NCBI GenBank assembly: GCA_029038705.1
Contig: GCA_029038705.1_4346.1
DNA from: a phage
DNA: 44,263 nucleotides
Direction: 5' to 3' (one strand)
Shown here: positions 2,431 through 26,706 of the stretch, one piece after another
Layout: each line of letters begins with the position of its first letter
Position numbering within the stretch: the first letter of the stretch is position 1
Notes under the pieces: generated by a model
Told to the model about the DNA's origin: nothing
The model's input: the letters and a program-made list of their open reading frames with translations, nothing else
Database searches by the model: none
Translations under genes and position numbers: made by a program

Positions 2431-2459
2431 ATAGTAGCCTATTCTATCTTAGTGTGCAA
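2431..2459 (-). promoter_or_regulatory. Sigma70-like promoter (TTGCAC-N17-TACTAT) carrying the AATAG-N4-CTATT element
   Basis: On the minus strand: TTGCAC, 17 nt, TACTAT. Plus strand carries GAATAGTAGCCTATTC. Confidence 0.55.
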
Positions 2460-2466
2460 GTAAATT

Positions 2467-2637
2467 TTATTGGTGTTTTAAAGATAATCGTTCGCCACGA
2501 ATCCAGTAGTACCTCGGGCGTCTGGCCCACTGGCACCAGCGCATAACACGGTACTTGTTGCCGTCTGACGCAACAATAAGCCCGAATCGCTTTTCTCCGT
2601 TTCTACCGGTCCAGGTTACGATGTCATTCAGTTTCAT
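2467..2637 (-). CDS. Hypothetical small protein
   Basis: 56 aa ORF (MKLNDIVTWTGRNGEKRF...), below the 60 aa track cutoff; fills an otherwise empty gap. Confidence 0.3.
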   Translation of the reverse strand: MKLNDIVTWTGRNGEKRFGLIVASDGNKYRVMRWCQWARRPRYYWIRGERLSLKHQ

Positions 2638-2771
2638 TGTTGCGTCTCCTGCAATAGTCGCTTCGATTGTTGCGTTTGGTGAAAGTGTCGCCTTTTGACG
2701 ACACTAAGTTAAAGTTGTACGCTGCTGTGTAGCAGCGTAAGTCACTCAGTAAAATCCCAAACTATTGAACA

Positions 2772-2972
2772 TCACACTTCCGGCGGTTCAGGTAACGGCA
2801 TCCAGTGAGTCACGTACTTATCGTAGTGATTCCAGAAAGGCTTTCTCCCGTCATCAGGAACGATGTAATAATCGTGTTGAACTGCGTTATTTAACGTTTC
2901 ATACACCAGGAATTCTTTATCTGTACTACCGTTGCCCGGCAGCATCTCACTACACTTAATCCACTCACCCAT
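2772..2972 (-). CDS. Hypothetical protein
   Basis: 66 aa ORF in the early minus-strand operon. Confidence 0.5.
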   Translation of the reverse strand: MGEWIKCSEMLPGNGSTDKEFLVYETLNNAVQHDYYIVPDDGRKPFWNHYDKYVTHWMPLPEPPEV

Positions 2973-2975
2973 ATC

Positions 2976-3119
2976 TCACCTCGTATTCATCGCAGTTTGA
3001 ACACCAGCTTTCCACGCCCGCCACGCGAGACGTGTCTTAACGTTCAGGTACTCTTTCTTTGAACCCTTGTTAACCGGCAGACCCTCGACGATGGCCCACC
3101 GTTCGAATGCTTCTCTCAT
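2976..3119 (-). CDS. Hypothetical small protein
   Basis: 47 aa ORF (MREAFERWAIVEGLPVNKG...); its ATG overlaps the upstream stop (ATGA). Confidence 0.3.
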   Translation of the reverse strand: MREAFERWAIVEGLPVNKGSKKEYLNVKTRLAWRAWKAGVQTAMNTR

Positions 3120-3322
3120 AACTCAACCCCGTGGTGCTTAAGAAAACTGTTTAACTTGTACTCACGGTACTGTGCTACCTCCTTAGCATGAGCCAAATGC
3201 CACGACTTCAACGGGGTGTACTTCGCCTTTTCCCAGCATTCAACACCAAACTCGGCGGCGCGCAGACCGCCAATCAGACGGCGTAAGCGGAATTCGTTAT
3301 ACGGACTCATACCAACCTCCAC
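3116..3322 (-). CDS. Hypothetical protein
   Basis: 68 aa ORF. Confidence 0.5.
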   Translation of the reverse strand: MEVGMSPYNEFRLRRLIGGLRAAEFGVECWEKAKYTPLKSWHLAHAKEVAQYREYKLNSFLKHHGVEL

Positions 3323-3364
3323 AACGCGTGCACCACATAAACGGCGCTGATGATTAAAACAAAC

Positions 3365-3586
3365 TTATTCACGGCAACCTCCCTCAGAGTCGTCGGCACG
3401 AGCATCATGATTCGATGCCGGTTCGAGTAAAGTGACCACACCACTTTCCTTCGTCAGAAGGATGTAAACCGTCCGCAAATGTGCGTACTGTTTTAGCCAG
3501 GGACCGATTTCGGATTTACTGTTGAATTCTTTACTGGCTATGGTTTGTTTTGTCTCTTTCGATTTAATCTCTAGCTTAATCATCAC
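3365..3586 (-). CDS. Hypothetical protein
   Basis: 73 aa ORF. Confidence 0.5.
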   Translation of the reverse strand: MMIKLEIKSKETKQTIASKEFNSKSEIGPWLKQYAHLRTVYILLTKESGVVTLLEPASNHDARADDSEGGCRE

Positions 3587-3777
3587 TTCGCCCCTTTGAA
3601 TTTAAAATTGTTGCCGATGAGTGTTAAATTATCTCTGAAAGCGTAACCATGTTTCTTTCGTACAAGACCCCATACGTCTACAGCGGTACTATATTCATCC
3701 TCATTCTGGGTAACTATTACGTACTGTCCGCCGCGTTTTGTTTTAACCAACTGACCCTTCTTAAACATAACCATCAC
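3583..3777 (-). CDS. Hypothetical protein
   Basis: 64 aa ORF; start overlaps the upstream stop. Confidence 0.5.
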   Translation of the reverse strand: MMVMFKKGQLVKTKRGGQYVIVTQNEDEYSTAVDVWGLVRKKHGYAFRDNLTLIGNNFKFKGAK

Positions 3778-3786
3778 TCCTCTGTC

Positions 3787-4005
3787 TTATTTAAAGTAGA
3801 TAGCAAATTTCTTGTAACCCGCTGGCTCGTTACGAAGTCCTTTACCGTTAGCGAAACGTTGTACGTTAACAAAATCATTTTCATCCATTCCGTCGGTGTC
3901 GAACGTAAAGAAGTTGCGCTTGTTCCCGATAATTACGCGCTCTGAGATATCGATGCCGTAAACTTCTTTGATTGCGGAAACTACGCTTGCGGTCGCTTTG
4001 TTCAT
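3787..4005 (-). CDS. Hypothetical protein (first gene of the leftward early operon)
   Basis: 72 aa ORF immediately downstream of promoter 4040-4068. Confidence 0.5.
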   Translation of the reverse strand: MNKATASVVSAIKEVYGIDISERVIIGNKRNFFTFDTDGMDENDFVNVQRFANGKGLRNEPAGYKKFAIYFK

Positions 4006-4039
4006 TTCTAAATTCCTTATGTCTCGTTTCGATAAGTGA

Positions 4040-4068
4040 ATAGTAACCTATTATGTTGGGGTGTGCAA
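4040..4068 (-). promoter_or_regulatory. Sigma70-like promoter (TTGCAC-N17-TACTAT) carrying the AATAG-N4-CTATT element
   Basis: Minus strand: TTGCAC, 17 nt, TACTAT. Plus strand reads GTGAATAGTAACCTATTATG. Confidence 0.55.
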
Positions 4069-4426
4069 GAGAATAGTTACGTTGCCGTTGTGATTCTTCG
4101 GGGAGGGTTGTGCCTTTATTCTTATTACTTGGTAACTAAAGGGCAGGCTTAAGCCTGCCCAATAATCGTTACATTTTTACGGTTGCGAATCTACGGCACA
4201 TTAAGAAACAGTATATATTTCAGCGGGTTACTTCTTTAAATGAGATTTAGATACACTTATCCTTAAACCCCAAGGCAAGCATCTCAGCTGTCTGGGAGGG
4301 GTTGACGAATCCCTCGGGGAGGGTTCGTCAACTCCGTAATATATACAAGTCCCAAAACCATTATACAAACATGTGTCAAGAACTTTCAATAACATTTTTG
4401 TAAAGATTAAATATTACAGAGATTGG

Positions 4427-4455
4427 TTGCTTTTACATTCCCGCTATCCTATACT
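4427..4455 (+). promoter_or_regulatory. Sigma70-like promoter for the rightward operon
   Basis: TTGCTT, 17 nt, TATACT, about 30 nt upstream of the ATG at 4487. Confidence 0.45.
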
Positions 4456-4486
4456 CAGTTTCACCAAACAAACAGGAGATATAAAA

Positions 4487-4669
4487 ATGTCGCATTATAT
4501 GACGCAGAATGAAGTAGCTGAACGTATCGGGGTGACACGTCAGACAATTAATAACTGGTTGCGCAGCGGCAAATTCCCTGACTGCTGTATTAAGGTTATG
4601 GGCCGCCGTTTACCGGGAACATTTGACCGTAATAAAGTCGAAGCATGGATTAAGGAGAACGTGAAATGA
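4487..4669 (+). CDS. Small HTH DNA-binding protein (AlpA/MerR-excisionase-like fold)
   Basis: MSHYMTQNEVAERIGVTRQTINNWLRSGKFP is a helix-turn-helix signature. AGGAGA sits 7 nt upstream; the track's longer ORF from 4373 has no RBS. Confidence 0.6.
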   Translation: MSHYMTQNEVAERIGVTRQTINNWLRSGKFPDCCIKVMGRRLPGTFDRNKVEAWIKENVK

Positions 4670-4956
4670 AAGGCGTAATTTTCCACAATAAAGCAGAAAA
4701 CGAAGTGTATATGGTTCACTCCGTGGCAGGAGAGTTCGCTTTATGCTTCAATATCTCTTGCCATCTTGATACCTACCGGCCTTTCTGCGTAGAAACAGAA
4801 ATGAAGCTAATTAGCTTACGCCAACTAAGCACCATGTCGGCATCGCTTAACGTAAGAGATAATCTCGAGTATATCGACTTCTATTTCGGCGATGATTTGG
4901 TCGAGGAATATTTTGAAGAGTATAAAAATTTGCTGGAAGGGTTGGCTAAACGGTAA
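4666..4956 (+). CDS. Hypothetical protein
   Basis: 96 aa ORF; ATGA overlap with the upstream gene. Confidence 0.5.
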   Translation: MKGVIFHNKAENEVYMVHSVAGEFALCFNISCHLDTYRPFCVETEMKLISLRQLSTMSASLNVRDNLEYIDFYFGDDLVEEYFEEYKNLLEGLAKR

Positions 4957-5025
4957 AAAGAAACCCCAACGCAAGAACGTCGGGGCCAAAGCACAAATCA
5001 TCAAAGTAAGCACAAGGATTATACA

Positions 5026-5154
5026 ATGACGAAGTTAATAGTTCCACAGCTGCGCCGACAGAAACACGGCGCCGATTTCTTCGCGCCGGTAAAGATGAAC
5101 CGCGCAATGCGCCGTATGCAGGAAGCCTTAGAACGTGCGGAGAAAAAGAAATGA
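5026..5154 (+). CDS. Hypothetical small basic protein
   Basis: 42 aa ORF (MTKLIVPQLRRQKHG...), AAGGA upstream; ATGA overlap with the next gene. Confidence 0.35.
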   Translation: MTKLIVPQLRRQKHGADFFAPVKMNRAMRRMQEALERAEKKK

Positions 5155-7373
5155 ATATTGTTTTTGCAACGCTGCGTAACACATTCGATAAAAACCCTGT
5201 AGCGCGTGAAATGCCGCTGGAGCAGTTTGTCGAGTATGTCTGCGATACATCGAAGCGTTTATCCGTGGACCCGTCATGGACTAAGGAAGAGTACGACGCT
5301 GCCAAGATTAAACAGAAAGCTATTGCGCCTGTTGGTGGTCGCCGTAAAAACGCTATCCTGGAAGACAGTGTGGTTAAGTTCGATTTCGACCATCTCAACC
5401 GTACTCAGTACCGCGACCTGACACGCAAATTCAAGAACGCGCCGTTCTTCAATATTCTGCACACAACGGCATCGCATCAGCACGCATGTAAAAACGGAGA
5501 TTACGCTTTCCGCGTTCTGGTTCCAGCTCGCACGCCGTTTAACTCTAACGACGCGTGGATGGTGCAACGTGCTATTTGTGCAGAGTTAGAAATAGACGAA
5601 GCGTTGCGCGACCACTGCACAGAAGACGGCAACCGCCTTATCTACCTGCCGCATAAAGAGTCGAAGATAACGGTTACAGAAGGGCGTGTTATCCGTGCTG
5701 AGCGGTACATCAAGAAAGCCGAAGAGATGGGGTTGCGTAAGCGTGAGGCTAAAACACTTGCCGCTGATGAGCATGGGCTTAACGCGGATATAGCACACTT
5801 CTGCGAAGCCGAGCTTGGCCTTGACGCTTTATCTTCCGGGCGCGGGTACGAAGTGCCATGCCCTAACGAACATCTGCATACAGGCAAGGGCTCCACCAGC
5901 ATAATGCTCGACGGTAAAGAAGTGCGCTTTGTCTGCCAGCATACAAACAACGGCGCTTGCACCGAGCTTAACCGTAGGCAGCATTTGGCCCTGCGTATGT
6001 GTGGCCTACCCGACGAGCTTAACATAGATAAGCAACCTATCAGCATTAACAGCATTCGTGCGGCTCTGCCTGATTTACCGGAAGAAGAGATTGAAGAACT
6101 ACACCGCACAGAGAACGAGGACCCAGTAACTTGCAGCCTCGACGACCTGGAAGACGACGAGGACTCAGAGGAGGACGAGTTACCGGAGCCGGTAAAGGCT
6201 GATTTCGTCGTTGAGGGGTACATGCCGTCGGATTGTATCTGGGATATCGTCGGGGAATCTGGCACGTACAAATCGTTCTATACGCTGGGGATGATGTACC
6301 TCAGCGCCGCCGGGTACAGGTTTGCGGGGGCGGATACCCAGCGTTGCCACCATTTCTATATTGATGGTGAGGGTGGCGCAGCTACACGCACCCGTATTGA
6401 TGCACTAGCGGCTAAATATGGCGGGGAAGGTAAAGATTATGTACACGTCATCGATATGGGCGAAGTCGGCAAACTTAAAAGCCTGATTAAGTTAATGCGC
6501 GAAACTGCTGGCGACGAGCCAATTGGCATGGTTGCGTTCGACACCCTTAACCAGACCCTGGCACTGACGATTGATAAGTTCGACGAGAACAGTTCATCAA
6601 CAGCAATCGGCATGGGTAAAGTTATCGCCATTCTGAAAGAAGTACGCGATGCAACTAAAGCCGCAGTAGGCGTTGTCCACCATACGCCGAAGGGTGGAAA
6701 GAAAGCACGCGGCAGTGGGGCGCTGTATGCGGGTGTTGACGTGGAACTGACAATCGAACGTGCAACCGACCGTCAGATAAACGTATATCACTCGAAATTC
6801 AAGCACGGGCCTCAGCAGAAGACGGTTGGCATGGTGCTGGAGTCGGTACAGTTCCGTGAAGCGCCGCCGCCTAAAGAATACCGAGCGGTTGAGTTCCTGG
6901 GTAGCACAGAGGAATACGGCACAATCGTAAACCTGGACCTGCCTGAACCACACAAGGCGCTTGTGTTGATGCCGTGGGGTTTCGAGCCGTTCAAAACTGA
7001 CGAGGAGAAAGAGCGGGAAGAAGGGTTGACGAAAGAAGGTAAGCAAAAAGTAAAGGAAGAAGTTAAACGCGGCAGGGATGAAGTAAGGAAGGAGTCAATA
7101 CTTTCGGCACTGGAAGACCTGCAACAGTCAGATGACACAGGTCGCGGTTTTACTCAGCAGCAGATAGTGGCTCGTTCCGGTGACTTCTCTGTGACTAACA
7201 CCCATCTTGATAAAATGTTGAAAGATGGAGAACTAATGCTTGGTTGCGATGCTAACGGCGAAGTAGTACCGAGAACATATCGTATACCCGAAAGAATAGG
7301 TGATAGATTAAGGCCGAAGACACTATACGAACCAAATGAGATGCTGGTGGTGACAGAGGAGGATTTGGAATAG
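5151..7373 (+). CDS. Replicative primase-helicase-like protein (N-terminal primase-like region, Cys/His cluster, C-terminal RecA/DnaB-type P-loop ATPase)
   Basis: 740 aa. Walker A-like GESGTYKS, Walker B-like VAFDTL, Cys/His cluster CPNEHLHTG...CQHTNNGAC, and a C-terminal acidic/basic tail. Domain assignment is by eye. Confidence 0.65.
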   Translation: MNIVFATLRNTFDKNPVAREMPLEQFVEYVCDTSKRLSVDPSWTKEEYDAAKIKQKAIAPVGGRRKNAILEDSVVKFDFDHLNRTQYRDLTRKFKNAPFFNILHTTASHQHACKNGDYAFRVLVPARTPFNSNDAWMVQRAICAELEIDEALRDHCTEDGNRLIYLPHKESKITVTEGRVIRAERYIKKAEEMGLRKREAKTLAADEHGLNADIAHFCEAELGLDALSSGRGYEVPCPNEHLHTGKGSTSIMLDGKEVRFVCQHTNNGACTELNRRQHLALRMCGLPDELNIDKQPISINSIRAALPDLPEEEIEELHRTENEDPVTCSLDDLEDDEDSEEDELPEPVKADFVVEGYMPSDCIWDIVGESGTYKSFYTLGMMYLSAAGYRFAGADTQRCHHFYIDGEGGAATRTRIDALAAKYGGEGKDYVHVIDMGEVGKLKSLIKLMRETAGDEPIGMVAFDTLNQTLALTIDKFDENSSSTAIGMGKVIAILKEVRDATKAAVGVVHHTPKGGKKARGSGALYAGVDVELTIERATDRQINVYHSKFKHGPQQKTVGMVLESVQFREAPPPKEYRAVEFLGSTEEYGTIVNLDLPEPHKALVLMPWGFEPFKTDEEKEREEGLTKEGKQKVKEEVKRGRDEVRKESILSALEDLQQSDDTGRGFTQQQIVARSGDFSVTNTHLDKMLKDGELMLGCDANGEVVPRTYRIPERIGDRLRPKTLYEPNEMLVVTEEDLE

Positions 7374-7400
7374 GTAAAAAGAAAGGGGCGTTACGCCCCT
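7373..7400 (-). terminator. Terminator between the converging primase-helicase and XRE genes
   Basis: Hairpin AGGGGCG-TTAC-GCCCCT; minus strand is followed by UUCUUUUUACC. Overlaps the XRE stop codon. Confidence 0.5.
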
Positions 7401-7606
7401 TCACCTAGCGCCAGCCACTTGGCGTCTACTTCCAGCACTTCCGCCAGTTTAAACAGCGTTGCCGGGCGTACGTCCTGAGTTACCCCGAGTGCAAGCTGGT
7501 TAATCGCGCCCTGGGAAACGCCGGCCAGAACAGCCAGACGGCGCTGGGAGATACCGAGTTCTTTACGGCGTTGCTCTACACGGATGCCTAGTTCAGATGG
7601 TTGCAT
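7391..7606 (-). CDS. XRE-family (Cro/CI-type) HTH transcriptional regulator
   Basis: 71 aa; ELGISQRRLAVLAGVSQGAINQLALG is the XRE helix-turn-helix pattern. Divergent from the flanking plus-strand genes. Confidence 0.8.
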   Translation of the reverse strand: MQPSELGIRVEQRRKELGISQRRLAVLAGVSQGAINQLALGVTQDVRPATLFKLAEVLEVDAKWLALGEGA

Positions 7607-7626: not shown

Positions 7627-7655
7627 TTGATATGTGAATAGTACCATATTAATTA
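7627..7655. promoter_or_regulatory. Operator-like copy 1 (GTGAATAGTACCATATTAAT), probably overlapping the leftward promoter of the XRE gene
   Basis: Degenerate copy of the AATAG-N4-CTATT element (second half ATATT), immediately upstream of the XRE gene start. Confidence 0.45.
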
Positions 7656-7670
7656 TTTTAGAAAAGCCCA

Positions 7671-7699
7671 TTGACATGTGAATAGTTCGCTATTATAGT
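7671..7699 (+). promoter_or_regulatory. Sigma70-like promoter (TTGACA-N17-TATAGT) with embedded AATAG-N4-CTATT palindrome
   Basis: TTGACATGTGAATAGTTCGCTATTATAGT; drives the gene at 7728. Confidence 0.6.
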
Positions 7700-7727
7700 T
7701 AGCCCATACCAAACGAGAGGGGCAGAT

Positions 7728-7955
7728 ATGAACACAATCACTGGGGCCATAGCTAAAGGTTTTCGAGCAATTTTCGGCGCTCCGCAAGAAGTGTGCACAA
7801 AACATAAATTTGTACTTTCTTGCGTAGTAGGGGATGAGTTTGATGGGTTCGATAAACTTGTTGTCTGTGACCATTGCGGGCAAGAAGCTATTCAACACTC
7901 AAACGGTAAATTTGAACTAATAGACGATAGCCTTACTGAAGGCGACGGTGAGTAA
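7728..7955 (+). CDS. Hypothetical protein (possible Cys-containing zinc-binding motif)
   Basis: 75 aa; CTKHK...CDHCG; GAGAGGGG RBS upstream. Confidence 0.5.
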   Translation: MNTITGAIAKGFRAIFGAPQEVCTKHKFVLSCVVGDEFDGFDKLVVCDHCGQEAIQHSNGKFELIDDSLTEGDGE

Positions 7956-7979
7956 CTTACACAAACAGGAGAGAAACAA

Positions 7980-8480
7980 ATGTTAGAGAAATTCTTAGTA
8001 TTGCTGGAACGTTTCGTAGTTGCACATGAACTGATTGCCGCGAACAGTGCGAAACAAGTTGTTCAGGTTGCCACGCCGCTGGAAGTAGAGACGGTATCGT
8101 ACACCAAAGAAGCGGTAGCTGAGTGCGCTGAAGAAGCAACAAAAGAAATCCCGGTTGAAGGTGAAGACGTAGTTGACACTAAACCGGCGGAGGAAGAGAA
8201 GCCAAAACGCAAGCCGCGTAAAGCTAAAGTAGAGGAACCTGCGCCAGAACCGGAAGAAGAGAAAGAAGAAGTCGATTACAAGTCTCTGCGTGACCAGATT
8301 CAGGCCATCGACGATGCAATTAATGAAGGTCCTAGCGATGCCGCGTGCGACGATTCTGATGAACTGCTGGAAGAGTTCACTGGTAAGAAAATGAAGATTG
8401 CAGCGATTAAAGACGAAGACCTGGCTGAATACCTGGAACGCTTGACAGCAATCAAGAACAAGTATTTCGAAGAAGAATAA
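7980..8480 (+). CDS. Hypothetical highly acidic protein with a short Lys/Arg-rich insert
   Basis: 166 aa; long D/E runs (EEEKPKRKPRKAKVEEPAPEPEEEKEE, DDSDELLEEF, KYFEEE). Confidence 0.55.
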   Translation: MLEKFLVLLERFVVAHELIAANSAKQVVQVATPLEVETVSYTKEAVAECAEEATKEIPVEGEDVVDTKPAEEEKPKRKPRKAKVEEPAPEPEEEKEEVDYKSLRDQIQAIDDAINEGPSDAACDDSDELLEEFTGKKMKIAAIKDEDLAEYLERLTAIKNKYFEEE

Positions 8481-8487
8481 TTATCTG

Positions 8488-8510
8488 GCGGCCTTCGGGC
8501 CGCTTTAACT
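8488..8510 (+). terminator. Rho-independent terminator
   Basis: GCGGCC-TTCG-GGCCGC followed by TTTAACT. Confidence 0.5.
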
Positions 8511-8523
8511 GAGGGTCGTAATA

Positions 8524-8739
8524 ATGAGTAACGTATACAAAGTAATAAACGAACAAATAGTTGTAGAAATAAGTGACTCATATGTGGGTTGTCAGCAATT
8601 CTTTGTTTTGAATGGTGCGTGGCGCGGGACTCTTGACTATGCCGCTGGCGAATATTGGGCGGACATGTACCCAACCGATAAAACGGCGGTACATACAATT
8701 CGTCCCGCCGTTAAAGGTGAATTTGCGCCGTACTACTGA
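8524..8739 (+). CDS. Hypothetical protein
   Basis: 71 aa ORF. Confidence 0.5.
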   Translation: MSNVYKVINEQIVVEISDSYVGCQQFFVLNGAWRGTLDYAAGEYWADMYPTDKTAVHTIRPAVKGEFAPYY

Positions 8740-8750
8740 GGGTCGGAATT

Positions 8751-8954
8751 ATGGCTATTTTAGCTAAGAAAAGTGGTCTTATGATTTCTGGCAGCGTTGT
8801 CGCTGAAAATGATTTGGTTTACGTATTTCAGGCGGTAGACAACAAACACCCTACGACGGTCAAGAAGGCCAGCAAAGTTGAGAAGGTTTTCGACGGCGAT
8901 TTTTCTATTGACGATGTTTTCACGTGGATTAATTCTGCGAGGGTAAGGAAATGA
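8751..8954 (+). CDS. Hypothetical protein
   Basis: 67 aa ORF. Confidence 0.5.
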   Translation: MAILAKKSGLMISGSVVAENDLVYVFQAVDNKHPTTVKKASKVEKVFDGDFSIDDVFTWINSARVRK

Positions 8955-10762: not shown

Positions 10763-10766
10763 AGTG

Positions 10767-10795
10767 TTGACACCTGAATAGTTAGCTATTATAGT
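10767..10795 (+). promoter_or_regulatory. Sigma70-like promoter (TTGACA-N17-TATAGT) with AATAG-N4-CTATT palindrome
   Basis: TTGACACCTGAATAGTTAGCTATTATAGT; upstream of the SSB-like gene. Confidence 0.6.
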
Positions 10796-10850
10796 TCTAA
10801 TCACTGGCCGGGCAGCTCCCGGAGTAAACTGAAAACTGAGGAATCGAGAA

Positions 10851-14409: not shown

Positions 14410-14686
14410 AGAGGGCCGCGTACAGAAATACGCAAAAGAGCAATTCGAGGCCATTGGCGGCCTCGTTCGTAAACTTTCGTACGAGGGGCGCTCCGGCGCC
14501 CCTGACCTGCTGGTAATTCTCCCCGGCGGCATCGTCTGGTTCGTCGAGGTGAAGAAAGACGAAAGCACGAAGCCTGACCCACACCAGTTACGAGAGCATG
14601 AGCGGATGCGTAAACGTGGTGCGAATGTTTTTGTCGTCGGGTCGTTCAAACAGGTTGACGACCTAATAGCGAACTATTATAGTTAG
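14399..14686 (+). CDS. VRR-NUC domain nuclease (PD-(D/E)XK)
   Basis: 95 aa; GAPDLLVILPGGIVWFVEVKKD matches the D-x(n)-E-x-K core. Confidence 0.7.
   Translation: MATKEGRVQKYAKEQFEAIGGLVRKLSYEGRSGAPDLLVILPGGIVWFVEVKKDESTKPDPHQLREHERMRKRGANVFVVGSFKQVDDLIANYYS
14655..14683 (+). promoter_or_regulatory. Sigma70-like promoter (TTGACG-N17-TATAGT) with AATAG-N4-CTATT palindrome, inside the 3' end of the VRR-NUC gene
   Basis: TTGACGACCTAATAGCGAACTATTATAGT. Confidence 0.55.
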
Positions 14687-18957: not shown

Positions 18958-18969
18958 ATAGAGTCCTCT

Positions 18970-21525
18970 TTAATTAAAACCATTGCTGAATCCGTCGGAG
19001 AAACCGCTGCCGTATGGCGCGACGCCGTCGTATTTATAGAATCCGTCGTCATAGTTGTAGCCTGTAATCTTGACCGTGCGGTCGTCGCCGGGGTCGATTG
19101 AAGAAACAACTATCTTCTGAGCATTATGCCTTGCTTCGTTGCCGAATGAAAACTCAGTTTTTAGTGCGCTATTCCCCGTGTAGATTGCTTCTTCCGGCGC
19201 GGAGAGCATAATCACTTCGCGGTCGTGGCTTCCTTTGATAACGGAGATACTCTGTACAGAGCCATCGCGCTTCTTGAGGATGATGGAGTGGTCATCACCC
19301 GGAGTAAACGCAACCGGCTGTGACAGTGTCAGCGTAAGCCCATTAACGGCAGCAACATAGCCGTCCTGTGGCGCAATACGCGAGCCTTTAACTACGCTGA
19401 TTACACCGCCTGGGGTAGCGAGCGCACCTTCTTCGGTAGCTTCAAACTCTACGACAACTTTACTTAACGCATTGCGCTGGTAGCGACGCCACGCCAGCCA
19501 GTACGCTTGCTGATAGTTGCGCACGCCCTTCGATTCGTATTCCTCGGTGTTTGCCCCTAGTTCTTCCGGGATATAAATAGTTTCCTGTACGTTCGTATCC
19601 GGGTCGATGTATGAGAACGACAGGCTATCGTAGGTTGTCGAATCGTTGAACGTGCGGGTCCATTTCTCAGTACCGGTAGTTTTGCTGCGGTGGGTGAACA
19701 CCATTTCAGGCCCCGCGACAGGACGGTCGAATCGCAGCATAATATCCGCACCTTTACGGTACGCAGTACAGAAAACGGCTTCCGCTATGGTCTGGACGAT
19801 GTCCTGCATGGTTGTGTCATAGTCGTCGAACGTGTAGCAGAATTGCCCTGCTAATTCACTTCCGAAATAGGACTCAATTTCTTCCTGCACAGCAAGTAAC
19901 TTGTCCATGTTTGCCGTTGTCAGTTCCAGATTGCCTACTGCGGGGTCGCGCGCCAGTCGAATTAGAGATTGTACGGCTTGCGTGTTCGGTGTCATTACTG
20001 TATCGAATACCCCATTGCCGAGGTATTTGTAGCACATCTCGGTCGCAATCATGCGCAGTTCAGGGTTATCGATACTGGCGGCCCGCGGCGTCTGTTTACG
20101 GGCGCAATGTACGGTAGTTCGGTTGCCGTAGTGTGGAGTGGTGTCCAGAGACTGCCCATACAGGTTAATGAATGTTATCTCGTCGCTTACCGTTCCGGCA
20201 TAGTCCTTATCAAAATTCGTTATACGGCGCATACGGGCGCGGAAACGAGACGCGGTCGGCAACTGCCCGTAGATAGACGTACCAACGTAATCCGTGCTAT
20301 TACCAGTAATCGTAGCCTGTACCGTGTAAATATCGCTCAACGGGTTACGCTGAGAGTCAATCATCTGGTACTGGAGTTCCACCGTTACGCTGGTGCGGTT
20401 ATAGCCGCCGTCGTATTTGTAGATGCCGTTCTGCCCGGCAACGTTCGCAAGCACCCGGTCAACTTCTCCGCGCACCATGTAATACCAGTCTGTCAGGGAT
20501 ACGTCATAGGTGTCGCTCGGGCCGATAAACGTATCTGAACGCTCTGTTAGGGCGTACGTCTGCCCGCTGGTCAACGCCGCCCAGTTAGACGCACCGTTTA
20601 CCGCTAATCTTACTTCGAAGTCATCAACGTATAAAACCTCAAACGAGCCGTTCAGGTTAGTGACATCAGCAACGTCAAAGTTGCTCAGCACCGCGACATC
20701 ACCGGCGCTAAGAAACTCAGAAAAAGCAGAGTCGCCCGACGGGTCATAGATGTAGCCGGTGGTCGAAGTACGTTTGGCGGTTCCACCGGAGCTTGGGTTA
20801 GCCCCAATGTCGTTTGGCGCTTTGAGCACAATACCGTCAACGTCGTCATTGGAGTACGTCACATAGAGCTTCTGATCAATGACGTCGCCGATTTGTACCT
20901 GCGGCGATGTGGTGTTGTTCGGTGACGTATACGGCGCGTACACGGCAACAGAGGAACCTGTGATGTCGCTTATCAGGGTGTCGCCTTCCGTGACGCCATC
21001 GGCCTCAATATACAGATGTCCGCGCCCGGCGTCGTAGTACGAATACTCCAGCAAAGCACCAGTGGAGTTGAACGCTTTATACGTCTGCATAAGGTCGTTA
21101 GGGATTGTCTGCACAGTCCCGCAGATGTCATAAGAGCGCTCGTAAGGGCGTGGTTTGTTTGAGCGGTCCGTGAGGCTGTTATTTGGCGATGTTGTCTGGT
21201 TGTTAGTCGCCGTATAGTTGGCGTTTGCGGACATGTTCAGGCCAAACAACTTAGCGATTGGCTTAAGGATAAAACCAAATACCTTACTAACTGCACCAAG
21301 CGCCCCGCTACCCGCACCCTCAATAATATGGTACACGGCGTCTTCGTCTTTAAGCGCTTCGAAGTCGTCTGTAACATCAGTATCATCGCCAATCTCGCCG
21401 AGGTAGACGCGCACAGGCACACCGTCCGGAATACGGCTAACAACAAACTCCATCGGCATCCCGACGTGTTTTGTACGGTCGAAAGCGCCATCAGCGTTTC
21501 GCGAGTAGTGCAGGATTATCGCCAA
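18970..21525 (-). CDS. Tail tip / central tail fibre protein (host-specificity J-like)
   Basis: 851 aa; position distal to tape measure and minor tail genes. Function assigned by size and position. Confidence 0.6.
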   Translation of the reverse strand: MAIILHYSRNADGAFDRTKHVGMPMEFVVSRIPDGVPVRVYLGEIGDDTDVTDDFEALKDEDAVYHIIEGAGSGALGAVSKVFGFILKPIAKLFGLNMSANANYTATNNQTTSPNNSLTDRSNKPRPYERSYDICGTVQTIPNDLMQTYKAFNSTGALLEYSYYDAGRGHLYIEADGVTEGDTLISDITGSSVAVYAPYTSPNNTTSPQVQIGDVIDQKLYVTYSNDDVDGIVLKAPNDIGANPSSGGTAKRTSTTGYIYDPSGDSAFSEFLSAGDVAVLSNFDVADVTNLNGSFEVLYVDDFEVRLAVNGASNWAALTSGQTYALTERSDTFIGPSDTYDVSLTDWYYMVRGEVDRVLANVAGQNGIYKYDGGYNRTSVTVELQYQMIDSQRNPLSDIYTVQATITGNSTDYVGTSIYGQLPTASRFRARMRRITNFDKDYAGTVSDEITFINLYGQSLDTTPHYGNRTTVHCARKQTPRAASIDNPELRMIATEMCYKYLGNGVFDTVMTPNTQAVQSLIRLARDPAVGNLELTTANMDKLLAVQEEIESYFGSELAGQFCYTFDDYDTTMQDIVQTIAEAVFCTAYRKGADIMLRFDRPVAGPEMVFTHRSKTTGTEKWTRTFNDSTTYDSLSFSYIDPDTNVQETIYIPEELGANTEEYESKGVRNYQQAYWLAWRRYQRNALSKVVVEFEATEEGALATPGGVISVVKGSRIAPQDGYVAAVNGLTLTLSQPVAFTPGDDHSIILKKRDGSVQSISVIKGSHDREVIMLSAPEEAIYTGNSALKTEFSFGNEARHNAQKIVVSSIDPGDDRTVKITGYNYDDGFYKYDGVAPYGSGFSDGFSNGFN

Positions 21526-21881
21526 AATTCAATCTCCGTGTACGTGTCTCTGAGGTCCGCCAGCCTGTCAAGCCGTACCTGGCGGGATGCAAGCTCGCAA
21601 TGACTCACCATCCCGTCGAAGTAAACTCCCGCATGCCACACGATACGACCCCCGCGGCGATAACCCATAAGCACCGCGCAGAAGTTTTCAGGCTTATCAA
21701 TTTTTGTAAGCCCCTTCGTGTCACGGCGGCCTTCGTCAAACGCTTCGTTAATTGCCGTTGGGCTTGTAACGTCGAACGCAGGGGTTTCTAACCCGGCATC
21801 CGCGCGGACAATGCGCACGTGATGCCAGCAATTGCGTTTGCGAAAGTCGTAAGGTATGCCCGTGTAGTCGTTAATATTCAT
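21516..21881 (-). CDS. Tail assembly protein, possible NlpC/P60-type (gpK-like)
   Basis: 121 aa with candidate Cys/His residues (NCWHHV, WHAGVY); positioned as lambda K. Confidence 0.4.
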   Translation of the reverse strand: MNINDYTGIPYDFRKRNCWHHVRIVRADAGLETPAFDVTSPTAINEAFDEGRRDTKGLTKIDKPENFCAVLMGYRRGGRIVWHAGVYFDGMVSHCELASRQVRLDRLADLRDTYTEIEFWR

Positions 21882-22393
21882 GTGGTCAACAGGCCGCGTA
21901 ATAACGGTATCTCTTTAGGTGTCATCAGTATACCAGTGCTTCGTTGGTTCAGCATAGGTGTACCGACATCTGCGGAAAACTCGCCTTTCTCCTGATTGAT
22001 GGCCTGTAACTCGTACATGACAGGGCCGTCCGCAGGATAAGACAGGTCGGTGCCGACGTAACGGCGGAATACAAACTTCGGCAACTCGGTGTTACTCATC
22101 GGGATTTTATCCATCTCATCATCAAGTTGATTGAGAATATCCGGTAGTGTAAACGTCGTCGTCTGGTCCATATCGCTGTTGTTAGCGGCCCCGGACGCCT
22201 CCATCGGGGTGGGTTCGAATGTGATAGTTTCGCCGGTTTCCAGTGTCGCCGTAAGTTCCTGTAGCCCACGAACAAGATAGTACGTCTTTGACAACAACGG
22301 GTGGCTGATTTGCAACGTGATGTAGTCTATCTCGCCGTCGGGATTTGATGCCAACTTACGGCGATAGGCAGCTTCTACTGATTCCTGACTCAT
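21878..22393 (-). CDS. Minor tail protein
   Basis: 171 aa; between the distal tail protein and K-like gene. Confidence 0.45.
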   Translation of the reverse strand: MSQESVEAAYRRKLASNPDGEIDYITLQISHPLLSKTYYLVRGLQELTATLETGETITFEPTPMEASGAANNSDMDQTTTFTLPDILNQLDDEMDKIPMSNTELPKFVFRRYVGTDLSYPADGPVMYELQAINQEKGEFSADVGTPMLNQRSTGILMTPKEIPLLRGLLTT

Positions 22394-22396
22394 AAG

Positions 22397-23797
22397 TTAG
22401 CCGTCCACATTAAAATCAATACGAGTGATATATTTACTACCCCACGCAGAATCGGCCTGAGGGATAGTCGCGTAATCATCTACAGCCTGAACGTTTATCA
22501 CGGAGCCGTCGGAATAGGTGATGTCGATACTTGTCGCGCCGTTCATTACTACTTTTGCCGATGGCGCTGGGCGTGTTACAGGAGACGCCGACGTAATTAT
22601 TGGTGATGTTGTATTTTGGTTTACCTCTACAGTAGCCGCGGATAATTTAATCCCTGAAACGCCATCCCCCGTAAAGGCTCCGGTAACTCCGTCTGAATAT
22701 ATCCATGCGTCCATCCGTATGCTCATTGTTTTATCTTCTGTCGCGGTGATCGTCTCCGATATTCGGAACCACCCTCCGCCTACGTCGGTTACATCTGTAC
22801 CGCCTGGGCCGGAATAAATGCTACCATCCCGCAAATCAACAACTGCCGAGCCTAATACTGTAGGAAGTTCTCGCACGTACATCCGTATGAAATTGTATCC
22901 GTTTGCTTTTGCGAAGAAACTAAAAGTAACCATGTCGCCAACACCAACGCTAACATCTACAGTCTGGTTTATTAGGTGGTTACCGCTTGCGGCGGTAGCA
23001 GTTACGTCGTACGTGCCAGCGGCTGTTAAAACACCTGTTTCAGATACTGATACACTCACCAAACCTTTGTTCCAGTTTGACGAAGAGAAATTGCTTGAAT
23101 ATAGGAATCTGTTAGTTACTGATACCTCTGGTGGCACGCGCCCGGCGGCAACCCCGTCAATAAACGTAAGAGGCCATTCATTGGCGGCGGACTGTACAAG
23201 ATTACCATTGCGGTTGATGTAATAAACCTGTGGCCCCTCATACACAATGCGGCTATCAAGAGTCGACGCCAGAAGGTTAATCGGCGGATACCCGGCGGGG
23301 CCTTCATTGCTCCAGATGCGAGGGAACGTCGTCTCATAGTTCGCGTATATTTTCAGGAAACTACCCAGACAATCCCCGTAACAGCCGTACAAATCCGGAA
23401 GATTGTTAATCAGGCACTGGTTCTCAAGGTCCTGGAACGGCGATTTCTCGGCGGTTGCTGTGAAGGTAATTGTCCAGTTAATCCCGTCTTCGGTGGACTC
23501 GGCGATAGTGGACGTAATGGTTACCTGATAATCTTCGATGCCCATGCCGAAGTCGTGCGCCATCCAGAAACTTGACGCACCGCCGTCTACTTTTTCGAGG
23601 AACGACAGAAACGCCTGTCGCCCCATTGCGGATGTAATCAGGGTTACGCTCACCGGGAACACGTCGTAATACGTGTCGCGCCCCTGACGTACACCGCCAC
23701 CAGCTAAATCAACGCTCCAGACGTTGTTACGTCTGGTCATCGAGTAGCCTTTCGATACAATTGGCTTAAGGCTACGTGGGAAATATAAGTCGCTCAT
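22397..23797 (-). CDS. Minor/distal tail protein with C-terminal extension
   Basis: 466 aa immediately downstream of the tape measure protein. Confidence 0.5.
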   Translation of the reverse strand: MSDLYFPRSLKPIVSKGYSMTRRNNVWSVDLAGGGVRQGRDTYYDVFPVSVTLITSAMGRQAFLSFLEKVDGGASSFWMAHDFGMGIEDYQVTITSTIAESTEDGINWTITFTATAEKSPFQDLENQCLINNLPDLYGCYGDCLGSFLKIYANYETTFPRIWSNEGPAGYPPINLLASTLDSRIVYEGPQVYYINRNGNLVQSAANEWPLTFIDGVAAGRVPPEVSVTNRFLYSSNFSSSNWNKGLVSVSVSETGVLTAAGTYDVTATAASGNHLINQTVDVSVGVGDMVTFSFFAKANGYNFIRMYVRELPTVLGSAVVDLRDGSIYSGPGGTDVTDVGGGWFRISETITATEDKTMSIRMDAWIYSDGVTGAFTGDGVSGIKLSAATVEVNQNTTSPIITSASPVTRPAPSAKVVMNGATSIDITYSDGSVINVQAVDDYATIPQADSAWGSKYITRIDFNVDG

Positions 23798-25815
23798 TAT
23801 TTGAACCCCGGCGCGTTTCTTGTGGCCTTGCGAGCCTTGCTAATCTTACTGTTGCTGTTCTGCAAAGACGCGGCAACCTGTTCTTCAATGATGATACGCA
23901 AACGGCCCTCATCATCTTGCTCAGTGGATACGTTGCCGATTTGAGAACTCGTGTTGTTTACGATAGTAACATTAGATGGGCCACTATTTCCGCTATTATT
24001 ACCGTTTAACTGCTGCCGTGTTTGACTTGCATTGGTCGCCCTGCCAGAACCCGCCATCTTGATAATCTCAGGGCCGCGTTCACCAACCAGGTAACTACCG
24101 CCAGCGTTCATTTGCCCGCCTTGCTCACGCGCGCCGCTAATCTTGGCGATGTTCGCCACCCCCGCCGCGACAGCCAGACCCGCGGCAACCGGAGCGAGTG
24201 CCGGGCCGACAATTGGAATAGCAGCAGTTGATTTATAGGCTTCGATAGCAGCCGTGTAAGTGGCAATAGTCGCTTGCGTTATGGCGAACGCTTTGTACGC
24301 AGCGGACGTCTCCCCCAGTGCGGATTTAGCATCCGCTGCCATGCTGCCGAATGCGTCGGCGGTGGCGTTGGCTTGTGCAATATTGCTCTGTTCGTTCAGG
24401 TTACGCACTGCATTAGCGTATTCTTCTTCGCTGATTAGTTTCTGTTTAAGGAAATCGTCCAGTTGCTTAAGTTTGGCGTCATTCTGCCGTTGGATTTCCT
24501 CGAACTCTGTGCCACCAAGCGCCTGTAGTTTCTCCAGATATGCATCAGCATTGTTATACAGCGCATCTCGTTGTGCCTGAAACTCCGCCATGATGTCACT
24601 TTTCGACTTCTCGTAGTCAGCGTCGCTTACGAGTTGCTTGTCGTGGAACTCCTGCAATTTAGCCAGTTTCTGTTTCTCTTTGGCGTCTATCCGTTCTAAC
24701 TCTGTTCCGGTGTTTGTGTCTATTTGAGCTATAAACTGGTCTGCGGCTTTCTGTGCGCTTTCCTGCGCGCGAGCGTCGGCGCGGGCTTGAGCATCTGCTC
24801 GTTTCTTAGCTGCGGCAGCGATACGATTCTGCCTGTCTATTTCCTTCTGTGCCCTGTCCGCCTTATCCTTTTCATACGTCTTCTCAGATTGCTCTACCCC
24901 TTTTCGCTCGGCTGCGCGGGTCTTTTCCTCCACACCAAGGTAGTTAAGTTCATTTCGCAGTTTATTTATTTCCATCTGCGCTTCTGGCGTTTTGGCGTTT
25001 ATGCCGTCCAGGTAGGCGACCAGCCCTTCTCGAGCTCCAGGAACCCCAGCTGCGATTGCTTTCTGAGCAACTTCAATACTGCGTAACTCTTTGGCGGTCA
25101 ACCCCGCCGCTTCCGCAGCGGATTCGTACTGGAAAGCCACGGCCCCGGCAGCGTCCCCGCCTTGGGCTATCTGTGATGCGGCAAGGTTGGTGGTCAACTT
25201 CTGAAACAGAGATTGGGCTTTTGTTACCTTATCAATAGCTTCAACAATCTTATCTGCGGTGGAGTTAGCCTGTATGGCGGTTGCCTCTAGTGCCTTATTA
25301 AGAAATGCCATCTTCTCCGCTGTTGTTGCCCCGACAGCGTCCAGTTTTTCCAGTGCGTCATTCATGTCATACACACCGGGTGTGGCCTCATTAAGAGCGT
25401 CATCAAGGAACTTAGTAGCTTCCTCCAGTTGTTTAGCGGTATCCGTTGAGTTACTCAAAGACGCGTACAGCGCGCCGCCGATTACGGTGGCGATAGTCAA
25501 TACCGTGCCCGCAATTGGATTGAATGCGGACACTAACTGACTACCTTGTTGCGTGAAAGCCGTGAGGGCGGACTGCCCCCCTTGGATTTGTACGATAAAG
25601 TCCTGTACCTGATACCCAGCATTACCTATTGACGCCCGCATCGCGTTCATCTTCGGGGTTGCCGCGGAGGTGGTGTCCGTTAGTTTCTTTGTGCTGGAAT
25701 CCGCTTTCCCAGCGGAACTACTAAGGTTATCTAACTGCTTTGCTGCTTGCTCCGCTCCAGTTGCCTGGACTCGCACCATTAAACTCGCGGTATCAGCCAT
25801 TATAATCGTCCTCAT
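23797..25815 (-). CDS. Tail tape measure protein
   Basis: 672 aa; long Ala/Gln/Lys/Glu-rich coiled-coil core, C-terminal hydrophobic/Gly-rich segment (IVGPALAPVAAGLAVAAG...GERGPE). Confidence 0.8.
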   Translation of the reverse strand: MRTIIMADTASLMVRVQATGAEQAAKQLDNLSSSAGKADSSTKKLTDTTSAATPKMNAMRASIGNAGYQVQDFIVQIQGGQSALTAFTQQGSQLVSAFNPIAGTVLTIATVIGGALYASLSNSTDTAKQLEEATKFLDDALNEATPGVYDMNDALEKLDAVGATTAEKMAFLNKALEATAIQANSTADKIVEAIDKVTKAQSLFQKLTTNLAASQIAQGGDAAGAVAFQYESAAEAAGLTAKELRSIEVAQKAIAAGVPGAREGLVAYLDGINAKTPEAQMEINKLRNELNYLGVEEKTRAAERKGVEQSEKTYEKDKADRAQKEIDRQNRIAAAAKKRADAQARADARAQESAQKAADQFIAQIDTNTGTELERIDAKEKQKLAKLQEFHDKQLVSDADYEKSKSDIMAEFQAQRDALYNNADAYLEKLQALGGTEFEEIQRQNDAKLKQLDDFLKQKLISEEEYANAVRNLNEQSNIAQANATADAFGSMAADAKSALGETSAAYKAFAITQATIATYTAAIEAYKSTAAIPIVGPALAPVAAGLAVAAGVANIAKISGAREQGGQMNAGGSYLVGERGPEIIKMAGSGRATNASQTRQQLNGNNSGNSGPSNVTIVNNTSSQIGNVSTEQDDEGRLRIIIEEQVAASLQNSNSKISKARKATRNAPGFK

Positions 25816-26062
25816 TACGGCCTTCGAACAGTGCGTCTAGGCCCATTATTAAGTCTACCTCAAGCAACGAGAACGGCTGTTTATGCAACTCTGCGTACGC
25901 TGTAAGGTGGTGATATTGGAGCATTTCCCTTGGTATTAGCACATTATTGCGGCTTACAAACTTCAATGCGTAGTATTTATCCATTATTTTCATCATATCG
26001 CTCGGGCATTCCGGCGGGGTTTCCTCAGGCTCCTTCGGTACAGGTAACCCCATAGCCGCCAT
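25793..26062 (-). CDS. Tail assembly chaperone, T-like downstream ORF
   Basis: 89 aa between the G-like chaperone and the tape measure. Its frame is open about 39 codons upstream of the ATG and is -1 relative to the preceding ORF. Confidence 0.4.
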   Translation of the reverse strand: MAAMGLPVPKEPEETPPECPSDMMKIMDKYYALKFVSRNNVLIPREMLQYHHLTAYAELHKQPFSLLEVDLIMGLDALFEGRNEDDYNG

Positions 26063-26151
26063 AGCGGCCTTGTGCCCGTCGGCGATGGAGTCGAACTCAC
26101 GTCTCCTTTGCCGTATAACCCAGCGATACCTCGCATATTCGTAAAGCGCTT

Positions 26152-26568
26152 CTACTTTACAGATAAAGCTTTGCGGCTCTCAGCATGGTGTTGAGCGACA
26201 GCCCCTCCCAACCCTTTATACTCCTTCAACAGCTTGACCAACGCTTTCTTAGTGAACTTCTCCTCGAAGGACCACCCTACAACAACAACGGCAGCAAGTG
26301 CATCGTTAAGTTTAGCCAATTCACTGTTTAATTCCGTGTTATAGCGCGCCCAGTCCCCTTTCTCGCGGCACTCCGCGTCGAGCGGTTTCAGGCGGTCAAG
26401 GATGTCGCGGTAAGCGGAGATAAAATCCTTAGCTGCGGCGATTGAGTCGTCGCAGTCAGGCCCCATCACCTGCAACCACTCCCCTGAGTCACTGCCGTCC
26501 GGTAGCAGGATAGGCATCTTAGTTCCCGCAGCGTGGCGGGACGCGAAATAAAAATCAGAAAGTTTCAT
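26152..26568 (-). CDS. Tail assembly chaperone (gpG-like)
   Basis: 138 aa, acidic; canonical position between the major tail and tape measure genes. Confidence 0.5.
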   Translation of the reverse strand: MKLSDFYFASRHAAGTKMPILLPDGSDSGEWLQVMGPDCDDSIAAAKDFISAYRDILDRLKPLDAECREKGDWARYNTELNSELAKLNDALAAVVVVGWSFEEKFTKKALVKLLKEYKGLGGAVAQHHAESRKALSVK

Positions 26569-26677
26569 TCTTTAATCCTTTGGTTAAGAGGTTGTTGGTT
26601 AAAGAGAAATGCACCAGGCGGTAACCAACCGCTTTTCGTGCGCGACACTAGGTGCAAAATTATTCTAACACACTACT

Positions 26678-26706
26678 TGCACACCCCAATATAATAGGGT
26701 ACTATT
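26678..26706 (+). promoter_or_regulatory. Sigma70-like promoter (TTGCAC-N17-TACTAT) with AATAG-N4-CTATT element, driving the plus-strand cassette
   Basis: TTGCACACCCCAATATAATAGGGTACTAT; same architecture as the minus-strand early promoters at 2431 and 4040. Confidence 0.55.

Follow-up and report, generated by a model that had tools for sequence, protein, structure and literature searches.

We found that six promoters in a 44,263-nucleotide stretch of phage DNA (contig GCA_029038705.1_4346.1 of NCBI GenBank assembly GCA_029038705.1; the whole stretch will henceforth be referred to as the window) carry exact copies of a single short palindrome, AATAG-N4-CTATT. These repeats appear to be host sigma-70 promoters of the early and replication units, each holding a 14-16 bp dyad operator with the consensus K-AATAG-N4-CTATT-M (K = G or T). 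The operator would most likely be bound by a dimer of a 71-amino-acid, 434-Cro-like protein encoded by a lone XRE gene in the same window. By megablast, the window belongs to the genus Kagunavirus (Guernseyvirinae): its identity is 96% with phage JSSK01 and about 93% with the BASEL phages Bas70-76, and matches at 80-90% came from several hundred records of Salmonella Jerseyvirus. The phage itself is a virulent E. coli K1 siphophage.

A palindrome within early and replication promoters

The palindrome occurs six times in the window in its exact form, against an expectation of 0.06 and a count that was reached in none of 100 shuffles; with one mismatch there are 12 matches where 1.09 are expected. 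When all 5-mer arms were enumerated with gaps of 0-8, AATAG-N4-CTATT ranked first and the other high scorers were terminator stems, and a generic repeat search also ranked the palindrome family first in the window (repeats D1, I1 and I2). Five of the six exact copies are intergenic (intergenic sequence makes up 6.4% of the window; binomial P ~6e-6 by our own arithmetic), the sixth lies in the final 22 nt of an open reading frame (ORF), and all six sit at a gene boundary and within a sigma-70-type promoter (Table 1). A preliminary description of this DNA had proposed that at least six promoters share the palindrome, and had suggested motif discovery and a scan of the sequence as a check; the exact copies are indeed where it placed them, and none lies deep in coding sequence.

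Among the one-mismatch matches, those at 5311 and 19866 fall in coding sequence (about the number expected by chance), those at 7637, 35909 and 44233 are intergenic, and the one at 1363 spans a gene end. The match at 7637 (AATAGTACCATATT) had already been picked out as a degenerate copy, and this copy is real. Jersey carries a syntenic AATAGTTGACTAGT at the counterpart of the 44233 site, and Bas70 has a full promoter of the second class described below in the head-gene upstream gap, where the 35909 site lies. We found no exact copy at the structural and late operons or at the helicase-primase operon promoter (4427-4455), and the earlier term "phage-wide" was thus too broad. Explanations in terms of a hairpin or cruciform, or of a known RNA family, were dropped, as the palindromes fold as single strands at just -1.5 to -3.2 kcal/mol and no Rfam family matches them.

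The promoters fall into two classes that differ in the register of the palindrome. In class A (TTGACA/G-17-TATAGT; promoters at 7671, 10767 and 14655) the palindrome begins 4 bp past the -35 hexamer and its final T opens the -10. In class B (TTGCAC-17-TACTAT; promoters at 2431 and 4040 on the minus strand and 26677 on the plus strand) it begins 10 bp past the -35, so that its downstream arm supplies the -10 (TACTAT). The class A hexamers and 17-bp spacers agree with the preliminary description, as do both minus-strand class B promoters; three details needed correction. Specifically, the plus-strand class B promoter lies at 26677-26705 and not at 26678-26706, the class B palindrome is displaced downstream by 6 bp (offset 10 vs. 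4) and not by about 7 bp, and GAATAG, claimed for all three class A promoters, does not hold at 14665, where the base preceding the palindrome is T instead of G.

The class A hexamers match the sigma-70 consensus (TTGACA/TATAAT) at 10-11 of 12 positions and those of class B are TTGCAC and TACTAT, the -10 of either class having A as its second and T as its sixth base; the spacer is 17 bp in all six promoters and 17-18 bp in orthologs from other clades; every promoter lies upstream of, and is co-oriented with, a gene or operon; and phage Jersey has curated promoter features at syntenic sites. The sigma-70-type assignment thus holds. Within these promoters the palindrome is not fixed in place. 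The 14665 core is the 7681 core in exact reverse complement, set in an unchanged promoter context, so both orientations of the element are in use. Across different or orthologous promoters, with relatives included, its distance from the -35 takes values of 4, 5, 7, 10 or 11 bp (e.g., the Jersey ortholog of the 26693 promoter has an offset of 7 and the -10 TATTAT). Together with the conservation of the arms and the lack of a meaningful hairpin or Rfam match, the two orientations and the variable register favour a regulator site separate from the promoter itself, as had been suggested earlier.

The motif is already in print under a wrong label. The genome paper of fBC-Eco01 reports seven PHIRE "phage promoters" with the consensus tgAATAGTa-ccTATTat-T, listed in its Table S2 as PP1-PP7 under "Phage RNAP promoter" (e.g., TGAATAGTACCCTATTATAT; PMC9825357), and the Golestan paper also reports seven PHIRE promoters (PMC7203180). 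Both phages are Kagunaviruses and these are the same sequences as the window motif. The label, and the fact that the sequences were reported as promoters by PHIRE, would have them read by a phage-encoded RNA polymerase; yet neither paper identifies an RNA polymerase gene (PMC9825357, PMC7203180), and we found no RNA-polymerase-like ORF in the window (from its ORFs and Pfam and PHROGs scans) or in the annotations of Bas70 and Jersey. The largest window ORFs encode a tail protein, helicase-primase, DNA polymerase, tape measure and tailspike. Each site is enclosed by near-consensus sigma-70 hexamers 17 bp apart, and the core is dyad-symmetric and occurs in both orientations and several registers, unlike an asymmetric block of fixed orientation. 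"Phage RNAP promoter" is a mislabel because these phages encode no RNA polymerase, and we give a phage polymerase practically no credence. Neither paper describes the dyad symmetry, the sigma-70 hexamers, the two classes or a link to XRE; our own contribution is to correct the interpretation, to separate the two classes, to add comparative evidence and to link the sites to XRE. Our literature search turned up no Guernseyvirinae paper describing a regulator of these sites.

Conservation and distribution of the proposed operator

Orthologous regions in 33 Kagunavirus and Jerseyvirus genomes or loci were located by flanking similarity with the palindrome masked in the query, which avoids the bias of picking sites by their arms, and only unique sequences were aligned for the information profile. 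Mean information was 1.87 bits in the palindrome arms, 1.78 bits in both the -35 hexamer and the non-arm bases of the -10 hexamer, 1.60 bits in the upstream flank, 1.41 bits in the other spacer bases and 1.25 bits in the palindrome centre. At the SSB promoter, eight different central tetramers were found between intact arms. In class A the left arm occupies about -25 to -21, a stretch without base-specific sigma-70 contacts, so its conservation is not accounted for by promoter function alone. Judged from the alignments, the profile bears the signature of a dyad-symmetric protein-binding site embedded in promoters, and we are confident, short of certainty, that the repeats are embedded operators.

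Could the same pattern arise with no dedicated reader, as inherited promoter-cassette sequence spread by duplication or recombination, or as a direct tuning of sigma-70 strength? A 37-nt stretch is 95% identical between the class B promoters at 4039 and 26693 (I2), which suggests cassette duplication, and the use of the class B right arm as the -10 also fits such an explanation. However, descent alone leaves unexplained why, at orthologous sites, the arms are conserved above the hexamers around a free centre. Also unexplained are the inversion of the core within one context, the variable register and the symmetric arm changes in contig L037, which has AATAC-N4-GTATT both at its XRE-divergent promoter and at another promoter; the position of the class A left arm, outside any base-specific contact of sigma-70, speaks against strength tuning as well. 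We consider it improbable that the palindrome has no reader.

Within Kagunavirus, conservation is high through the promoters and 5' untranslated regions and collapses at the first downstream start codon, as seen for the 2430 and 7681 promoters (mean 0.5-0.8 bits at 2380-2400 and 7728-7760 vs. 1.7-1.8 bits). Several genes just behind promoters are variable, and in Bas70 an additional gene is driven by an additional class B promoter. Early genes may be exchanged at the promoters, which would then serve as mosaic junctions.

We then compared 70 viral contigs gathered via alignment of XRE homologs. The motif (at most one mismatch) occurs at 3-4.5 copies per 10 kb in all Kagunavirus loci, about 2.7-4.4 in all Jerseyvirus loci, 1.5-3 in phiEap-2-like loci and about zero elsewhere; it is dense in 22 of 22 Kagunavirus and 12 of 12 Jerseyvirus genomes or loci carrying the XRE protein. 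Bas70 has seven exact copies, and Jersey has four exact copies and seven with one mismatch (1.2 expected). One-mismatch matches number 10 in phiEap-2 (0.95 expected) and 4 in Otaku (0.53 expected), and SP-031 and St162 have a single such match each, vs. about one expected. The orthologous promoters of St162 are still sigma-70-like and their left arm has decayed. A mismatch-tolerant enumeration of dyads over whole genomes yielded no operator for the motif-less clades, the results being dominated by GC-rich coding patterns. The arm variants differ by clade. AATAG-N4-GTATT is frequent in phiEap-2. All 40 Jersey half-sites have T as the outer base, which gives a 16-bp perfect palindrome (TAATAG-N4-CTATTA), and 84 of 92 Kagunavirus half-sites have G or T.

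This distribution bears on whether a transcription factor or nucleoid protein of the Enterobacteriaceae binds the palindrome, the phage having evolved to recruit it. Such a factor would be in keeping with the presence of the motif in phages of E. coli, Salmonella and Enterobacter. By contrast, Cornellvirus has the same Salmonella hosts and lacks the motif, and the arms and outer base vary by phage clade and not by host. Moreover, none of 5,426 complete E. coli genomes contains the promoter cassettes, so these are not shared with prophages or the host. To our knowledge no enterobacterial factor matches, as the arm sequence or spacing of CRP, ArgR, OxyR, DnaA and TrpR sites does not fit. We put little weight on a host protein as the reader.

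The XRE protein as the probable reader

The XRE protein matches Pfam HTH_3 (PF01381) with 47.2 bits against a cut-off of 23, and its best sequence match in the PDB is 434 Cro, also 71 amino acids long (E=2e-6). An AlphaFold2 (AF2) model built from the single sequence has five helices (pLDDT 81.7), helix 3 (H32-39) being the recognition helix, and its top Foldseek match is again 434 Cro (2cro; 42% identity, TM 0.74/0.81), further matches being C-proteins, SinR, HipB and the 434 and P22 repressors. XRE is present in every genome examined and in every motif-bearing clade. In the window the gene is monocistronic, and a terminator-like hairpin (7402-7382) overlaps its 3' end.

The control region of the XRE gene holds two sites, O1 inside the divergent class A promoter and O2 closer to the start codon (Table 1). 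The arrangement recurs among relatives: seven of eight clade representatives have a site 42-50 nt upstream of the XRE ATG (chance about 2-3% each), and in six of the eight there is a second one 44, 55 or 63-65 bp further upstream, i.e., about 4, 5 or 6 helical turns away. Clades holding XRE-linked sites include Cornellvirus-like genomes, which are without the genome-wide motif. The pair therefore tracks the XRE gene throughout the subfamily, and the dispersed copies seem to have multiplied in the lineages of Kagunavirus, Jerseyvirus and phiEap-2. From the sequences of Jersey, St162, phiEap-2 and L037 we read an XRE promoter of the form TTGxxx-17/18-TAxxxT, whose spacer and -10 are overlapped by the proximal site. 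The gene order around XRE has also changed: XRE is the first gene of an XRE-helicase/primase operon in phiEap-2, SP-031, St162 and Otaku, and in Kagunavirus and Jerseyvirus this module is inverted and has gained its own promoter and the HTH_17 gene.

The XRE regulatory region has a single match in the 5,426 complete E. coli genomes, a type I-E CRISPR spacer of strain 2017.09.02CC (NZ_AP025214.2) that is 100% identical to window positions 7643-7675 over 33 nt. The array adjoins cas2e, cas1e and iap. If it is read from the cas2-proximal leader, the protospacer lies on the window minus strand with a 5'-ATG PAM (7675-7677 = CAT on the plus strand).

Two further helix-turn-helix (HTH) proteins had been named as candidate readers alongside XRE, which is favoured here. 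The NinH-like protein (42508-42768) is disfavoured, as its Pfam score does not reach the cut-off and it occurs in SP-031 and St162, which are motif-less. The HTH_17 protein (excisionase/MerR-like, 60 amino acids, 4487-4669) is a possible but weaker candidate; were it the reader, an early protein would repress or modulate the class A and class B promoters. It is a genuine rival because its HTH segment is near-identical between genera and it is restricted to Kagunavirus and Jerseyvirus. The protein is 80% identical between the window and Jersey, with three substitutions in the HTH segment alongside identical arms, and it was detected solely in these two genera, i.e., the clades with the strongest exact-motif enrichment. 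The early gene _008 ("HTH domain") listed for phage K1B4 (PMC12645636) also maps to it in our gene-order assignment. On the other hand, phiEap-2-like phages (with the clear enrichment given above for phiEap-2) and L037 share the same promoter/operator architecture, and phmmer (--max, E<=10) found no HTH_17 homolog in phiEap-2, Otaku, SP-031 or St162. There is no site near the HTH_17 gene, whose own promoter has no palindrome, and the conserved site pair tracks XRE and not HTH_17. It also counts against HTH_17 that HTH_17/Xis-like monomers typically bind head-to-tail direct repeats instead of short dyads. We regard HTH_17 as an unlikely reader, albeit one to be taken seriously.

The observations in favour of HTH_17 weigh against XRE, and several others do so too. 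The XRE recognition helix differs at four of seven positions between Kagunavirus (SQGAINQ) and Jerseyvirus (SQSLITH), whose five-base arms are identical. The outer-base difference between the two genera parallels these helix differences, yet across clades we found no simple residue-to-base code linking the recognition helix to the arm variants, only suggestive parallels of this kind. Cornellvirus-like phages keep an XRE homolog without having the genome-wide motif. The position of the Kagunavirus XRE promoter is uncertain between two alternatives, the candidate listed in Table 1 and a class-B-like TACTAT -10 that lies inside O2 (as in Jersey, phiEap-2 and L037) and has no good -35 in Kagunavirus. 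The conserved site positions are not independent events because the clades share ancestry. Finally, the sole transcriptome, of Kagunavirus vB_Eco_K1B4, sampled an unsynchronised culture over 120 min and gives gene-level classes: the four early genes include _008 ("HTH domain"), and the middle class includes "_004 specific DNA binding" and "_005 AAA domain" (PMC12645636). In our mapping, made by gene order alone, _004 is XRE and _008 is HTH_17; these classes (HTH_17 early, XRE middle) do not discriminate between the two proteins, and a peak of XRE later than that of the earliest genes would fit a repressor that builds up before closing the promoters. On balance, we think that XRE is probably the reader, with appreciable room for doubt.

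If XRE is the reader, host RNA polymerase would initiate at all these promoters on entry, and XRE, produced from its own promoter, would then bind the operators as a dimer. The class A operator occupies the spacer and the class B operator covers the -10, both within the polymerase footprint (about -25 to -12 and -20 to -7, respectively), so binding would reduce initiation, and the early and replication units would be turned down while XRE accumulates. We infer repression rather than activation from the operator position, the near-consensus hexamers and the optimal 17-bp spacers. With O1 and O2 flanking the XRE promoter, XRE would also regulate itself, possibly cooperatively given the helical phasing. 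The structural late operons and the helicase-primase operon have no exact site. Taken as a whole, this explanation seems to us a likely one, though far from assured.

Such a system would work like Cro-type repressor-operator control, and the features that could be checked for a 434-Cro-like regulator (Pfam family, five-helix fold and a dyad operator at its own gene) were all found. 434 Cro and repressor bind 14-bp operators through short outer arms around a non-contacted centre. The predicted window operators are alike in being 14 bp long with short conserved outer arms and a variable centre, in overlapping promoters and in flanking the gene of the putative regulator within a divergent control region; 434 Cro is also of the same length and Pfam family as XRE and its best match in sequence and fold. 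The differences are that the window phage is strictly virulent and lacks a peptidase-domain cI, an integrase and a tripartite OR/OL (the XRE locus has just two sites), that the arms are AATAG and not ACAA (434: ACAA-N6-TTGT), and that the predicted operators are spread over at least six promoters instead of serving one switch. No S24-peptidase CI or integrase ORF was found in the window or its annotated relatives, and long cI-like homologs occur in other contigs that are without the motif.

The C proteins of restriction-modification systems, which act at C-boxes, offer a second comparison. They are small dimers of the XRE fold, C.BclI and C.AhdI taking ranks 2-5 in the fold search, with paired dyad sites before their own gene and delayed, feedback-controlled expression, resembling the XRE locus. 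However, C proteins act at one operon, activating first and then repressing, whereas the window sites lie inside strong promoters at many loci; nothing suggests activation by XRE, save possibly at its own promoter. MerR-type regulators bind between the -35 and -10, like the class A operator position, and the rival HTH_17 belongs to the MerR/excisionase superfamily, though a protein of 60 amino acids could not accommodate a dimerisation coiled coil. Promoters of the MerR type depend on DNA distortion and have spacers of 19-20 bp; MerR-like activation was excluded, as the window spacers have the optimal 17 bp.

Phage gene control of this sort is ordinary, and the result is nothing conceptually new for phage biology. 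Kagunaviruses and Jerseyviruses are, however, widely isolated for therapy and biocontrol while their regulation is essentially unstudied. Reading these sites as promoters for the host polymerase corrects a label that is spreading through genome papers and allows the promoters and operons of the early half of the genome to be mapped. It also names a small protein, XRE, whose removal or overexpression should alter infection timing. Screens of therapeutic phages often flag XRE genes as "temperate markers", and here the XRE gene looks like part of the lytic programme. More speculatively, a subfamily taken to be strictly virulent that keeps one Cro-like repressor, with operators in essentially every early and replication promoter as well as its own, could shut down its whole non-structural programme. 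We consider this unlikely; if true, it would amount to a built-in timer or a reversible silent (carrier or pseudolysogenic) state, and the operator-bearing promoters would double as conserved junctions for the exchange of variable early genes.

Genome layout and further elements

The gene layout in Table 1 was derived from the Bas70 annotation and the ORF map of the window.

Table 1. Coordinates of promoters, operators, genes and other elements (window positions unless another genome is named).
Feature	Position	Strand	Remarks
Exact palindromes (starts)	2430, 4039, 7681, 10777, 14665, 26693		
Class A promoter TTGACA-17-TATAGT	7671..7699	+	11/12 consensus; upstream of 7728-7955 and subsequent replication-module genes
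Operator O1 AATAGTTCGCTATT	7681..7694		In class A spacer; overlaps -35 of candidate XRE promoter on the other strand
Operator O2 AATAGTACCATATT, one mismatch	7637..7650		Starts 44 nt upstream of XRE start codon, 44 bp from O1
Degenerate tandem class A copy TTGATA-18-AATTAT	7627..7656	+	Holds O2; D1 repeat, 73%
Candidate XRE promoter TTCACA-16-TAAAAT	7655..7682	-	O2 over start site, O1 touching -35
XRE/HTH_3 protein, 71 aa, 434-Cro-like	7391..7606	-	Proposed operator reader
Class A promoter TTGACA-17-TATAGT	10767..10795	+	Operator 10777-10790; upstream of Gp2.5-like SSB and DNA polymerase
Class A promoter TTGACG-17-TATAGT	14655..14683	+	Operator 14665-14678; upstream of 14717-14908 and helicase
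Class B promoter TTGCAC-17-TACTAT	2431..2459	-	Operator 2430-2443 over -10; upstream of 2213-2398 and subsequent genes
Class B promoter TTGCAC-17-TACTAT	4040..4068	-	Operator 4039-4052; upstream of 3787-4005 and subsequent small genes
Class B promoter TTGCAC-17-TACTAT	26677..26705	+	Operator 26693-26706; upstream of 26746-29111; divergent gap facing tail operon
Weak one-mismatch site ACTAGTTGACTATT	44233..44246	-	Overlaps -35 of promoter TTGACT-17-TATATT (44241-44213); family membership uncertain
Weak one-mismatch site	35909..35922	-	Head-gene upstream gap; family membership uncertain
HTH_17 protein, 60 aa	4487..4669	+	Rival reader; first gene of its operon
HTH_17 operon promoter TTGCTT-17-TATACT	4427-4432, 4450-4455	+	No palindrome
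Small early genes and lysis genes	1-4400	-	
Helicase-primase operon	4487-7373	+	
Lone XRE gene	7391-7606	-	
Replication module	7728-16975	+	
Tail genes	17005-26657	-	
Short transcription unit	26746-29111	+	
Head, portal and terminase genes		-	
GAATA-N3-TATTC/heptamer element	35924-35970, 35141-35154		Bas70 (L001) 37256-38076; SP-031 (L003) 25405-26601; phiEap-2 (L005) 11501-11887

Several other features of the window were seen in passing. The gene at 2213-2398 on the minus strand, the first behind the class B promoter at 2431-2459, matches PF25180 ("phage antiviral trigger protein Gp54"; E=4.6e-26) and has no counterpart in Bas70 or the other relatives compared. On the minus strand of the gap at 4006-4486, a promoter-like TTGAAA-18-TATAAT (4389-4360), which falls within the sole ORF of that gap (4228-4395), and a terminator-like hairpin (4160-4141) bracket about 200 nt; the stretch 4141-4389 could give a small RNA or a short peptide transcript. 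The heptamer AAACGAGA lies upstream of the first-gene ribosome-binding site at 4022-4028 (minus strand), 7712-7718 (plus strand) and 44194-44200 (minus strand), and likewise behind several promoters in Jersey and Otaku; it is not enriched in the window (7 vs. 5.6 expected).

A 470-amino-acid ORF on the plus strand (37585-38997), with matches to a DUF4379 zinc finger and a Vsr/MTES_1575-like endonuclease, sits between the portal and head-morphogenesis genes, which are on the opposite strand. It has no counterpart in Bas70; a Jersey sequence with 44% identity to it is presumably the one annotated as "Hef-like homing endonuclease" (Jersey_03). From these matches it looks like a homing endonuclease insertion. 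HNH_3 endonucleases are encoded at 13903-14409 and 28308-28808, and a Toprim-like ORF (16326-16841) has no counterpart among the relatives compared. Near-identical GC-rich hairpins of the form AAGGCCCC-N4-GGGGCCTT with T-rich flanks occur at 11498, 16980, 29221, 35987 and 39001; the family is common to relatives, three of its members (16980, 29221 and 39001) stand where the flanking genes switch strand, and the hairpins are probably bidirectional terminators.

The region upstream of the head genes holds a second and different element, GAATA-N3-TATTC (5 matches vs. 1.0 expected), beside which TTATTCC/GGAATAA heptamers cluster in both orientations. This heptamer cluster was found in all complete Guernseyvirinae genomes examined save Otaku, including those without the AATAG palindrome, and is a candidate late-region regulatory array.

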